64,000 nt of DNA, from positions 23,215-87,214 of the IMG/VR virus record IMGVR_UViG_3300031857_000082; one strand, 5' to 3'. Below are positions 33,438-50,049 of this stretch, one piece after another. Below the pieces are notes generated by a model. That model worked only from the letters and a program-made list of their open reading frames with translations, was not told the origin of the DNA and did not search any database. Every line of letters starts with the position of its first letter. Within the stretch, counting starts at the first letter, position 1. The stretch is from a virus. The translations under genes were made by a program, and so were the position numbers.

Positions 33438-33769
33438 TATGCTGTTACCTCCGCATATGATAAATTAAAACTTACACTACCGCTTGAAGACCATACCGAC
33501 AAAACATCGGAGGCATCCATGGTTATTCCATGTCCAAATTCTACTGTGTCATTTGCAGTAATCATTAAACCAAAGAATAAGTAATGTTGGTCAGCAATTG
33601 ATGCACCATCTGGCCTTACTGCTACACGAATTGATGCAGATGTTGCACCTAAATTACATGCATGAATATTTGAAATTACAGCCTGAGTATCAGCAGGAAC
33701 TGTATATAAAGTTGAAAGTGTTTGTGCAGCAGGTTCTAACTGTGCAGGTGACTTATAAGTTGTTGCCAT
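33437..33769 (-). CDS. 110-aa adaptor protein
   Basis: TLYTVPA.TQAV family, five close paralogs. Confidence 0.7.
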   Translation of the reverse strand: MATTYKSPAQLEPAAQTLSTLYTVPADTQAVISNIHACNLGATSASIRVAVRPDGASIADQHYLFFGLMITANDTVEFGHGITMDASDVLSVWSSSGSVSFNLSYAEVTA

Positions 33770-33990
33770 TATTTAAACGCTCCAAAGAAAGAATTAAATC
33801 CACCTTCTGCAGTAGATCCTACGTCTATCCATTCATTACCATTATAAGCCTTTAATAAATGTGTATTTGCATTTGTTGTATCTACCCAAAGTTGTCCAGT
33901 AGTTGGACTTGAGGGTGCAGAAGTACCATAATGAATATCTTTTTCAAAATTAGTTAATGCTTTATCTGCTAGATCTCTGGCTTTACTCAT
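33769..33990 (-). CDS. Short linker protein (MSKARD start)
   Basis: 73 aa; one P..GQLWVD...YNG.EW domain. Confidence 0.7.
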   Translation of the reverse strand: MSKARDLADKALTNFEKDIHYGTSAPSSPTTGQLWVDTTNANTHLLKAYNGNEWIDVGSTAEGGFNSFFGAFK

Positions 33991-34952
33991 ATTAGATACC
34001 TAATTATTACTATTCCACTACCGCCATTTCCTCCACCACCTGTTGAAATTGCCATTCCACCGCCACCGCCACCAGTATTTTCTGTTCCATTTATTGCTGT
34101 AACATAATTTCCACTAACATAACCACCAGCACCTCCACCACCTAATCCACCAGAACTTCTTGTTGCACCACCATTTTGTTGTCCACCTCCTCCACCTCCT
34201 GCATAAAATACTGATGTTCCACTTATTGATGATTGAAGTCCAACCCCTCCATTTCCAGGATTTCCACTAGTTGCAGTAACTCCAATAGCACCAGCACCTC
34301 CACCACCTCCTGCAACATATGCATACGTATTATATGGAAAACCATTACCACCAATATTTCCTTGACCAGCAGTTGCTGATCCTCCTTGTCCAGCGGTTGT
34401 GGAAGATGTACCTCCTCCACCACCAGATCCTCCAGAAGTTCCATTTAAATATGTGTTTCCAGTACCAGTATATGCACCACCTGTGCCTCCGCCAATTGCA
34501 GTTAATGAATTAAATGAAGAATTTGTGCCGTTAGTTCCAATTGTAGATGTTCCTCCTGGTGCTGTATTTCCTCCAGCACCGACAACAATTGAATATGTTC
34601 CAGGATTAATAATAGTACTTCCTTGAATTAAACCTCCTGCTCCACCGCCTCCAGCACCTCCACCTCCACCGCCACCTGCAACAATTAAATAATCAATACT
34701 GGTTTGTCTATTTACAATAAAAGTTCCACCACTTAAAAAAGTATGAATTTTATATCCACCAACCGTAGTTATGTTTCCACCAGTTGCTTTATTAATTAAA
34801 GAAGTTTGAAACAATTCAGAATATGATTTTCCTTGTGATAATTGTGTGGAAAAATCTGATGTTGTTAGTCCACTATTTATTAAAGATTGAATCTGTCCAT
34901 ATGTTAATCTATTTGTATTATTATTTGAAGCATTACTACTATTAATTGCCAT
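33987..34952 (-). CDS. Glycine-rich fibre tip protein
   Basis: Gly-rich domain ending in GGSGIVIIRY. Confidence 0.75.
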   Translation of the reverse strand: MAINSSNASNNNTNRLTYGQIQSLINSGLTTSDFSTQLSQGKSYSELFQTSLINKATGGNITTVGGYKIHTFLSGGTFIVNRQTSIDYLIVAGGGGGGGAGGGGAGGLIQGSTIINPGTYSIVVGAGGNTAPGGTSTIGTNGTNSSFNSLTAIGGGTGGAYTGTGNTYLNGTSGGSGGGGGTSSTTAGQGGSATAGQGNIGGNGFPYNTYAYVAGGGGGAGAIGVTATSGNPGNGGVGLQSSISGTSVFYAGGGGGGQQNGGATRSSGGLGGGGAGGYVSGNYVTAINGTENTGGGGGGMAISTGGGGNGGSGIVIIRYLI

Positions 34953-47405: not shown

Positions 47406-47427
47406 AATTTATTTTATACCCTCCATT

Positions 47428-50049
47428 TTATGCTCTTCTCATCATACAGCCGTTAAATTGAGTTAGTGTTGGATCTGTGTTCATAGTAACATTTCCACCA
47501 CTTTCTTGATAAACATATCCTTCAACGTAATCAGTTGATCCATTCATATATAGTAAACCATTAGCCTCAAAAGATATTCCACCATTATTATTAGAACCTA
47601 AATCTAGTCTTTGAATAGCACTGCCACCGTTTTTATAAATAGCAACGGCTCCACGATTAGAGGTAAAGCCCATAAAAACAGATAGTGTAAACATATAATA
47701 TCCAGCCACGGTTGGTGTAAACCGATTATTAGTAGTATTAAAATTATTATTAGTATCAAAGTTTTCGTTATTAAATGGAATTTTAGTCCATGTTGAATTA
47801 GGTATTGTTAATGCTCCAGATGTAGTGCTAAATGCTGGCCCCTTTTCAAGTGTATCAATCTGTGTTTGAGTATAGTATGTAGCAGAAGCACCACTTTGTG
47901 TTAAAAATGTGCTTGAAGCACTAGCCTGTGTTAAGAATGTGCTATTTGCTTGACTAGTTGTATAAACATCAGCCACATTAAATGGTTGAGTATTTATAAT
48001 TTCTATAACATCATTTGTTACTATCCCCGAACCTAGGGTAATTACAGAAGCACTAGTTCTAGCATAGTCAGTAATTGGGGTAAGTAAAATACCATTCAAA
48101 TAAACTTGTTCGTAGCCAGAAGTGTATGAAAGTGGTAGAGAATTATCATCATTTCCTTGAACCTTAGCAGGATCAAGAAGATTGATTGTTCCTTGCATTG
48201 ATGAATGATATTGACAAGCATAATAAAGTGTGTCTGGTGCGTTTGCTGGTATAAACCAAGTTATTGTTCCATTATCAGTTCCAAGATTTGTTGTTCCAGT
48301 TGAATAAACGTTTCCGCTACTATATCCTCCAGAGACTGTTTGAATCCAGAATGGGTGACCACTTGCATTTATTGAAAATGTATATGTATTTCCTTTTACT
48401 AAATTAAATGTTGGATTTTGTACTCCTGCAACAACATAAGCACCCGATCCATTATTTGTTACAGTAAAACTTTCATTGCCAGGTATTGTATATACTTTTT
48501 TCCATCTAGTTAGATTATTATACTTAGCATCTATTTGTGCTTGAGAGTATGTGTTAACATTTGTTGAGTTTTGATATGCATATATGTCTATTACATCATT
48601 GACTACCGCCGCTTCTGCCAATACTATCGCAGATCCGCTGGTAGCAGTATATTCATTCTTAGCAATCAATACACCATTAATAAATACTTGTTCATATGAT
48701 GGATTATATTGTAGGGTTATAGAATTATCATCTACCCCTGAAATTACTGTTGCTGATGCTGATAAAGTTTTTGTCCATCTAGTAAATGCTGCTGAAGCAG
48801 TTTTAGAAAGATATGTTGATGATGCTGCAGTTGTTGTTAGTAAAGTGTCTAATATGTTTGCATTATCATTTAGTGCTGCTGATAATTCGTTTAATGTATC
48901 TAAGGCTGCTGGTGCACCATCTACTAAGTATGATACTGCTGCTGCACTTGCTGTTTGAATAGTTGAAGACAAGTCTATTGTTGCTATTTGTTGATCTGTA
49001 TATGAACTGGCACTTGCATAAGCCGCAGCCGAGGCGGTATTTATAATATCTTGTTTAGGACTATTTACCCATATAGAAGAAGCAGAGTTATAAACTATTA
49101 AATCATCATTTGCTACCCCTGAAATTCTTACATCATGTAATTCATCTAATTCATATCCATTTTGTGCTTTTACATATATTCTTCCTGAAGAAGCATTTTT
49201 CTTTACTACTACCCCGACAAATACACCATGTAATGGTCCTTGTGGTTTTGTTGTTGTTAAAGATCCAGGAGTATTTCCTAACCAGAGAACGTCTCCTTCA
49301 TTAAATCCATTTGTATTAATATTTTTTACAAGACCTTGAGATACTATTAATCCTTCTGCTCCGCTTGTGATATTTTCTGCTGCTATACCAAATGTTTTGG
49401 CAGAAGTAGTATCTGAAGCATTGCTTGCTAATTTAACAGATGGTCTTTGACCTTGAGCACCAAAAAGATATACTACCTGACCTTTTGTTATTGTAGAAGC
49501 CTCAGCGTTATATACTTTTACTACAAGTTCTTGACCAAGTGTTACGTTTGTGTCTGCATTAAGTTGTAAAGATAAAGATGACTCTCCACTATCCCATGAA
49601 AGTGTTGAAACACTTGCTGAAGTATTTTCGGGGGTAGTATCAAAAACAATATAATCAGGATAAGCAATAGAATCTACACTAGTATAATTACCTGTTGAAT
49701 TAATAGTTACTGAATTATTAGCACTGGCATTTACTATAGAAATATTTTCACCAGATATTATGGTTAATGTTTCTCCTGCTGTTGCAGCAACTATAGATTC
49801 AGTCGAAGGATTTGTAACAATTGTTTGGAAACTTGGACCACCAGTTCCTCCACCACCTCCTCCACCACCTCCTGTAGCAGATGCATTACTATCTACCCAA
49901 ATTGTTCCTACTTCTAAATTTGTTACATCTGGCTGAGAGTCTGAATAAATAACAGAAGCACCTGTAGGGGCTCCTCCTCCACCAACAGGAATCCAGACGG
50001 TACCGTCATAAAAATATAAAGTTTTTCCTGCTGTTGATACTGATGCCAT
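47428..50049 (-). CDS. Multidomain fibre protein with C-terminal C1q-like domain
   Basis: 873 aa; two YEQV..NG domains, cupredoxin-like insert, PAFS...FDTNNNF..RFTPTVAGYY C1q-like tip. Confidence 0.7.
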   Translation of the reverse strand: MASVSTAGKTLYFYDGTVWIPVGGGGAPTGASVIYSDSQPDVTNLEVGTIWVDSNASATGGGGGGGGGTGGPSFQTIVTNPSTESIVAATAGETLTIISGENISIVNASANNSVTINSTGNYTSVDSIAYPDYIVFDTTPENTSASVSTLSWDSGESSLSLQLNADTNVTLGQELVVKVYNAEASTITKGQVVYLFGAQGQRPSVKLASNASDTTSAKTFGIAAENITSGAEGLIVSQGLVKNINTNGFNEGDVLWLGNTPGSLTTTKPQGPLHGVFVGVVVKKNASSGRIYVKAQNGYELDELHDVRISGVANDDLIVYNSASSIWVNSPKQDIINTASAAAYASASSYTDQQIATIDLSSTIQTASAAAVSYLVDGAPAALDTLNELSAALNDNANILDTLLTTTAASSTYLSKTASAAFTRWTKTLSASATVISGVDDNSITLQYNPSYEQVFINGVLIAKNEYTATSGSAIVLAEAAVVNDVIDIYAYQNSTNVNTYSQAQIDAKYNNLTRWKKVYTIPGNESFTVTNNGSGAYVVAGVQNPTFNLVKGNTYTFSINASGHPFWIQTVSGGYSSGNVYSTGTTNLGTDNGTITWFIPANAPDTLYYACQYHSSMQGTINLLDPAKVQGNDDNSLPLSYTSGYEQVYLNGILLTPITDYARTSASVITLGSGIVTNDVIEIINTQPFNVADVYTTSQANSTFLTQASASSTFLTQSGASATYYTQTQIDTLEKGPAFSTTSGALTIPNSTWTKIPFNNENFDTNNNFNTTNNRFTPTVAGYYMFTLSVFMGFTSNRGAVAIYKNGGSAIQRLDLGSNNNGGISFEANGLLYMNGSTDYVEGYVYQESGGNVTMNTDPTLTQFNGCMMRRA

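Follow-up and report, generated by a model that had tools for sequence, protein, structure and literature searches.

Branched fibres have been described in a number of enterobacterial phages, in which a docking domain of one fibre protein holds a second protein. As set out in the available excerpts of PMC8825819, the XD2 and XD3 domains responsible are β-jellyrolls whose trimers present a free face for another trimeric protein; their ligands are gp12 and gp11 in T4 and TSP2 and TSP1 in CBA120, while the binding of gp63.1 in G7C requires XD3 of gp66. In phages of the KP32 type, the second fibre fails to assemble once either the branching domain or the peptide is lost, according to the accessible part of PMC13352976. 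Here, a comparable locus is described in a stretch of 64,000 nucleotides (the window; positions 23,215 to 87,214 of the IMG/VR virus record IMGVR_UViG_3300031857_000082), which is phage DNA from a contig of 87,214 bp in total and contains a cluster of fibre genes from a siphovirus-like phage. Four copies of a domain of about 88 residues, termed the 'YEQV' domain, and four genes with a short basic N-terminus of the form M-x-R/K-A/T-R-D/E are found in it. The original prediction, made from the letters of the sequence, took the domain for a socket and the N-terminus for the plug that fits it. The analysis presented below, in which positions are those of the window, indicates that an anchor-and-branch fibre system of the KP32, G7C and CBA120 kind, with a distinctive and widely shared plug, is on balance the probable explanation.

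Domain copies and N-terminal peptides in the window

A hidden Markov model (HMM) made from the four 'YEQV' copies finds exactly these four in the whole contig, with independent E-values from 1e-28 to 1e-38, and pairs of copies share 35-51% identity. Within the domain, E64, N69, G70 and Y79 are nearly invariant. Two are located in an 873-residue fibre backbone (47428..50049, minus strand, as an open reading frame), one in a 271-residue adaptor (38690..39505, minus) and one in a 191-residue adaptor (35285..35860, minus), in agreement with the distribution originally described. The first copy of the backbone spans residues 424-511 (48517..48780, minus; HMM positions 1-88, independent E-value 5.6e-33). 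The second is split: its main part covers residues 625-706 (47932..48177, minus) and HMM positions 12-88 only (independent E-value 1e-28), and its first strand, RWKKVYT, lies at residues 515-521 (48487-48507), followed by an insert. By the same HMM, the domain of the 271-residue protein occupies residues 117-205 (38891-39157, minus), between N-terminal WxG..W motifs and a DUF7360-like module with a hydrophobic tail, and that of the 191-residue protein occupies residues 35-123 (35492-35758, minus), ahead of a short helix, a DUF7360-like module and a hydrophobic tail. The motif Y/W-x-W-x-G-x-x-W opens the 873-, 271- and 191-residue proteins, none of which matched a known anchor family in Pfam or PHROG.

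The M-x-R/K-A/T-R-D/E N-terminus is carried by exactly four genes of the contig, for about 0.002 expected by chance for the strict pattern among 269 first starts. Two of them encode proteins with a glycine-rich tip domain, namely a 342-residue protein (MGRARD; 46377..47405, minus, start at 47405), which also contains a short WxD/Y-G module, and a 326-residue protein (MGRTRD; 45378..46358, minus, start at 46358). The other two encode a 70-residue protein (MSRARE; 37158..37370, minus, start at 37370), composed of a DUF7360-like module and a hydrophobic tail, and a 73-residue protein (MSKARD; 33769..33990, minus, start at 33990), likewise with a DUF7360-like module and a tail. When the 422 candidate starts of the contig (269 of them first starts) were scored with a matrix trained only on N-termini of other lineages, MGRARD, MGRTRD, MSRARE and MSKARD reached 19.3, 6.4, 14.9 and 20.7, respectively, and the next best start -0.1, so that the four-to-four total holds with no further candidate. 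The gene order, given by protein length, is 873, 342, 326, then 271 ... 70 and 191 ... 73, the plug genes lying downstream of the domain genes as had been stated.

Besides its two domain copies, the 873-residue protein matches PHROG 677, 'baseplate wedge tail fiber protein connector' (1.4e-18). Its C-terminus (residues ~739-873; nucleotides 47428-47835, minus) resembles a C1q/TNF-like head, with a Pfam C1q match at residues 739-821 of 24.8 bits against a cut-off of 23.7, and this suggests that the backbone bears a tip of its own in addition to two docking domains. The segment that interrupts the second copy, read from the sequence as a foreign insert of about 100 residues (522-624; 48178..48486, minus), displays a cupredoxin-like H...C..H..M pattern (GHPFW ... 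YYACQYHSSMQG); its matches are weak (Pfam At5g54830-like, E 0.011; copper nitrite reductase, E 0.66), and comparison with PDB sequences gave nothing significant.

Fold of the domain and of the glycine-rich tip

In an AlphaFold2 (AF2) model of the 191-residue protein, residues 29-108 are all β, with a predicted local distance difference test score (pLDDT) of 94-98, and a helix follows at 115-123. VIA-align matches this model best to the XD2 domains of CBA120 TSP4 and T4 gp10, and TSP4 chains are recovered by Foldseek at E ~1e-3. As modelled, the 'YEQV' domain is a β-jellyroll that can be superposed on XD2 and XD3, and it would thus be a sequence-divergent member of the T4 gp10 XD2/XD3 fold.

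The 342- and 326-residue plug proteins are paralogues with 53% identity, and the former contains a Gly_rich_2 domain (3.4e-15). Its AF2 model has a pLDDT of ~95 over residues 70-342 and low confidence over residues 1-67. For the glycine-rich domain (residues 70-342), Foldseek places the fibre of cyanophage Pam3 first (3.2e-6) and also retrieves tail-tip proteins of mycobacteriophage Bxb1 (7.1e-5); the predicted fold fits a position at the distal tip. A weaker fold likeness to the glycine-rich domain of ALK/LTK receptors was also observed.

Co-occurrence in other phages

A search of IMG/VR with the 191-residue protein yielded 50 loci selected by the domain; these and the loci below, numbered with the prefix L, reach no further than ±10 kb or the end of the contig, which makes their domain and plug counts lower bounds. 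N-termini were scored with a 10-residue matrix over 6049 candidate starts (median -23, 90th percentile -13), members scoring at least 5; the matrix was trained on matches to a relaxed pattern and is circular for those, and the window was re-tested without its own lineage. Where at least 3 kb of downstream sequence was present, a plug gene followed in 31 of 37 loci and the two counts were equal in 27 of the 37. In most of the domain-selected loci, the motif or a near variant (MTRARDVAN, MTKARDLAN, MARSRNTAD, MSRALDTAK or MAKSRDIAS) starts the gene just 3' of the domain-bearing fibre. Several loci hold more than one pair: three domains and three plugs are found in L006, where a 686-residue protein with two domains is followed by two plug genes, and two of each in L047, L011 and L015, with two domains and one plug in L009 and in L051, the latter being cut.

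Selection by the peptide leads to the same association. A DNA pattern for MTRARDVAN alone retrieved 73 stretches, 72 of them new. Of the 61 that extended at least 1.5 kb upstream, 56 encode the domain there in the same orientation, typically at a distance of 1.0-1.4 kb. The pairing is found in 13 domain clusters with less than 70% identity between them, which differ in their neighbouring genes and in the body of the plug protein. A tblastn search of phage records with the plug protein of L040 returned only six weak records, none of them informative.

In about 40 of the peptide-selected loci, the motif and the domain are joined in one protein, the domain beginning at residue 14 (L055, 5824-6780; L096; L103). 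The family typified by L055 has two more genes with an N-terminal XD domain upstream and a gene with the plug-like start MSNARKLADN downstream. The presence of both elements in a single protein of this type fits an arrangement that would permit chaining.

Eight cultured phages with the domain were checked, of which five display a clear one-to-one pairing, one a weak pairing, and two the domain without a plug. In whole-genome scans, the domain protein and plug are gp40 (annotated as a tail fiber) and gp43 in HTVC201P (MTKARDISS, 20.2), gp32 and gp29 in HTVC028P (MSRARELAD, 22.5), gp35 and gp37 in CRP-804 (MSKARQLAD, 13.7), and gp51 and gp49 in Hroenn (MTNARDKAN, 13.5); in CRP-1, for which 49.9 of 54 kb were scanned, they are gp43 and gp37 (MSKARELAD, 19.4). 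In each of these five the lone outlying N-terminus is located one to five genes 3' of the single domain-bearing fibre gene, and no other start scores above -1.7. Limnohabitans phage DC33, scanned in full, has one domain and a weak plug candidate (6.2). The equal numbers that the original prediction had expected across related phages are thus found in most of the loci with sufficient downstream sequence and in five of the eight isolates, and they fail in some genomes.

The conservation of the N-terminus was also considered at the codon level. For MTRARDVAN, one codon set dominates over 58 distinct contexts, with a few synonymous variants, and codon use is too uniform to separate a peptide-level from a nucleotide-level constraint within that subfamily. 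Beyond that subfamily, the variety of N-termini such as MSKARD, MGRARD and MARSRN speaks for a constraint on the peptide.

A number of observations weigh against a dedicated pair of docking partners. The likeness to XD2 rests on structure and not on sequence: a profile of 35 domain sequences compared with PDB sequences gave a best E of 0.15, to an unrelated protein, and no gp10-like chain, and in Pfam the domain matches only DUF4183, an F-ENA-type jellyroll, at 18.9 bits, below the cut-off of 25.1. The domain is present without a plug in L014, L016, L027, L028, L033 and L034, and also in the cultured phages S-SRP01 (one domain, whole genome scanned) and YerA41 (one N-terminal domain, ±12 kb scanned), and plugs without a detected domain are found in L070, L104, L107, L122 and L064. 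Two cut loci depart from equality, L004 with three domains and two plugs and L005 with two and three. Since many loci are close relatives, raw locus counts overstate independence. In addition, G7C gp66 has an XD2 domain for which the available excerpts of PMC8825819 give no known partner, and the same fold serves also as an anchor.

In one alternative, the domain and the peptide would be conserved parts of fibre modules that are inherited jointly but do not depend on each other, the peptide anchoring its protein to the baseplate, the neck or the ~110-residue proteins of the cluster described below, and the domain having another partner or none. The genomes with one element alone, the unpartnered XD2 of gp66 and the occurrence of both features in fibre clusters of related aquatic phages, many of them near-duplicates, agree with this view. 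The pairing is, however, kept amid otherwise different phages, which include podoviruses of SAR11 and Roseobacter, the Limnohabitans phage, the siphovirus-like phage studied here and the 13 domain clusters; the numbers of domains and plugs track each other from one to four; and selection by the peptide alone recovers the domain in nearly all of the loci that reach far enough upstream. Joint transfer of unconnected pieces is considered unlikely.

The other use of the fold deserves separate consideration. In T7 gp17 a tail-attachment domain at the N-terminus joins the fibre to the tail, and the 'YEQV' domain might similarly fix the protein that contains it to the tail or another fibre, with the plugs binding elsewhere. 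The N-terminal placement of the domain in YerA41 and in the L055-type family speaks for such a role, but in the window and in podovirus fibres it is internal, as in both copies of the backbone and at residues 453-535 of the 771 of the HTVC201P protein, and two anchors within one 873-residue chain would be hard to explain. An anchor of this kind is regarded as most improbable.

Shared module and cassette array

All four plug proteins contain a module of the form S..P..P..G.LW.D.......LK.YNG..W, with a weak Pfam match to DUF7360, and the same module follows the 'YEQV' domain in the 191- and 271-residue proteins. Residues 2-64 of the 73-residue protein match residues 118-180 of the 191-residue protein (52% identity, E 1.6e-20), and residues 15-69 of the 70-residue protein match its residues 137-191 (58% identity). 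In this alignment the plug residues coincide with the last part of the helix (115-123) predicted after the domain of the 191-residue protein. The original prediction had overlooked this paralogy of the small plug proteins with the post-domain module of the two adaptors. The 342- and 326-residue proteins consist of the same plug and module joined directly to a glycine-rich domain.

The small plug genes belong to an array of five cassettes (32592..41707, minus), recognized from the open reading frames, their termini and Gly_rich_2 matches, each cassette comprising an adaptor, a protein of about 110 residues and a glycine-rich protein (144/111/464, 271/110/328, 70/110/319, 191/110/321 and 73/110/281 residues). 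The initiation codons of the 70- and 73-residue genes overlap the stop codon of the glycine-rich gene ahead of them, in TAATG and ATGA, respectively, and these overlaps suggest that their translation may be coupled to that of the preceding gene. Because the cassettes form a repeat, the 271/70 and 191/73 pairs are adjacent cassettes, and the paralogy of the 70- and 73-residue proteins with the C-terminal half of the 191- and 271-residue proteins implies that two of the four pairs may stem from one duplication. Judged from these alignments, the two pairs would not be independent instances, a point to be added to those held against a dedicated docking pair. The adaptors of 144, 271, 70, 191 and 73 residues share one kind of C-terminus, in which LK.YNG..W leads into a linker rich in Gly and Ser and then into a short hydrophobic tail such as LKTHFLLMGA or HPFFQAGI. 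Such shared ends, ahead of the ~110-residue and glycine-rich proteins, look like a second kind of joint.

The array also admits an explanation in which the 70- and 73-residue genes are simply 191/271-type adaptors that lack the domain. M-x-R-A-R-D would then be the start of the module, homologous to the post-domain helix and with no docking role, and the one-to-one ratio of the array would result from tandem duplication of a two-cassette unit. Both alignments to the 191-residue protein, the coincidence of the plug with the end of the predicted helix and the alternation of 271, 70, 191 and 73 residues along the array are in keeping with it. However, the same peptide heads unrelated bodies without the module, such as a family of ~200 residues beginning MTRARDVANIDG... 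and pelagiphage and CRP-1 proteins of 476 to 607 residues, as well as the glycine-rich 342- and 326-residue proteins, and the matrix derived from other lineages still singles out exactly these four genes. The two domains and two plug genes at the 873-residue protein, and the two that follow two in L006 after the 686-residue protein, would be left unexplained. Truncated paralogy as the whole account is rated very unlikely.

A further small gene is associated with plug genes elsewhere. In eight related loci, a gene of 85-128 codons, mostly ~120, whose product starts MAHFAEI or MAHYA..., lies directly upstream of the plug gene (L004, 2897-3265; L005, 2512-2880; L006, 5402-5659; L009, 2225-2590; L012, 11779-12165; L013, 3470-3853; L047, 14367-14747; L051, 7559-7936). 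The window has one such gene (32199-32564, minus), but the glycine-rich gene that comes after it has no plug. The product may be an assembly helper of plug-bearing fibres.

Setting of the fibre gene cluster

Fibre-like genes, all on the minus strand, run uninterrupted from ~54 kb down to 28 kb of the window. Structural genes identified outside the cluster are those for a tape measure protein of 2609 residues (1659-9488), the major head protein (13626-14606), the head protease (14629-16023) and the portal (16075-17667). Compared by megablast with 50,697 phage records, the 17-kb region found no match, and thus no close relative among them.

Siphovirus fibre genes usually follow the tape measure gene. 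The 26-kb cluster (28070-54166) is instead located upstream of the portal and head genes and not after the tape measure gene (1659-17667 compared). Its fibres are candidates for the tail, the neck or the head, and the PHROG labels of the shared module include 'minor head protein'. Between two of the fibre genes sits a gene for a 207-residue protein (43650-44273, minus) with a He_PIG Ig-like domain (E 8.6e-6) and a weak match to SUEL-type lectins (E 0.032).

Proposed architecture

In the anchor-and-branch reading, the four M-x-R/K-A/T-R-D/E proteins would be secondary parts of the fibre that dock by a conserved peptide, made up of their first ~9 residues. The 873-residue backbone would mount the 342- and 326-residue glycine-rich tips on its two XD-like domains, and the 271- and 191-residue adaptors would each mount one small plug adaptor, of 70 and 73 residues, respectively. 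Each small adaptor, like the larger ones, would in turn bear a 110-residue protein and a glycine-rich tip. The contact might be made on the face of the trimer, or a helix or strand might pack in the manner of the post-domain helix in cis; given the alignment of the plug with that helix, docking may occur by imitation of the junction.

We infer the contact between plug and domain, the assignment of plugs to sockets and the geometry from fold likeness, counts and co-occurrence. A complex prediction for three copies of residues 25-125 of the 191-residue protein and three of the 73-residue protein, run with alignments, gave 0.84, 0.82 and 0.87, with 0.75 for a control with an unrelated partner; it yields no verdict and is counted neither for nor against binding. 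The socket-and-plug idea of the original prediction thus gains partial support from the fold likeness and the co-occurrence, and loses through the exceptions to one-to-one pairing, the non-independence of the 271/70 and 191/73 pairs and the fact that its principle had already been published.

A broader proposal can be put forward tentatively, as one more apt to fail than to hold: M-x-R/K-A-R-D/N and the 'YEQV' XD domain might constitute one portable standard connector for podoviruses, siphoviruses and other tailed phages, which would allow unrelated phages to swap tips and, since a plug and a socket are combined in some proteins, stack them into multi-level fibre trees, on hosts including SAR11, Roseobacter, Limnohabitans and unknown aquatic bacteria. 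If so, the number of tips per phage could be read from its genome, covering both the number of tips per virion and which gene hangs on which. A common connector would explain the movement of host-range modules between unrelated phages, and gp10-like branching would be extended beyond the enterobacterial phages T4, CBA120, G7C and the Klebsiella podophages. Among the full-text matches listed, terms for gp10-like or branching domains did not co-occur with pelagiphage or roseophage, and this one search thus gave no account of the pairing in marine phages.

Comparison with known systems

In the profile comparison with PDB sequences, the 'YEQV' domain showed no similarity to T4 gp10 or to the branched tailspike complex TSP1-4 of CBA120 (TSP4-N; PDB entries 7rfv, 7rej, 7rfo and 5iv5; excerpts of PMC8825819). 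The partners in CBA120 dock through a folded head or XD domains and are tailspikes, whereas a short shared N-terminal peptide is proposed for the window and the tips are glycine-rich domains. The likeness to the Pam3 fibre (7ypx, 7yfw) and to Bxb1 (9d93) concerns the glycine-rich tip of the 342-residue protein only, and neither the plug nor the socket. In G7C, gp66 and gp63.1 form a complex with two branches, where the partner bound by an XD domain presents a positively charged surface, as reported in the excerpts available of PMC6872550 and PMC8825819; unlike in the window, that surface belongs to a folded domain, and only one pair is present, in a podovirus of E. coli.

The arrangement resembles that of KP32, K11 and KP34, in which, according to the accessible portions of PMC6872550 and PMC13352976, a first fibre with a T4gp10-like branching domain is accompanied by a nearby downstream gene with a conserved N-terminal peptide. 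This layout matches that of the pelagiphage and roseophage isolates, and in the window too a short conserved N-terminal peptide is found on second proteins encoded near the primary fibre. The Klebsiella peptides differ between phage groups and, in the part of PMC6872550 available, are without positive charge, in contrast to the single basic motif M-x-R/K-A-R-D/N shared here across very different phages. Also unlike the Klebsiella systems, the genome studied here has four pairs on two levels, and some proteins carry both plug and socket. The principle of a branching domain joined to a conserved peptide is already established, so that the present locus extends a known mechanism and adds no new one; what appears to differ is the use of a single basic motif across phages, the presence of four pairs on two levels and the union of plug and socket in one protein.

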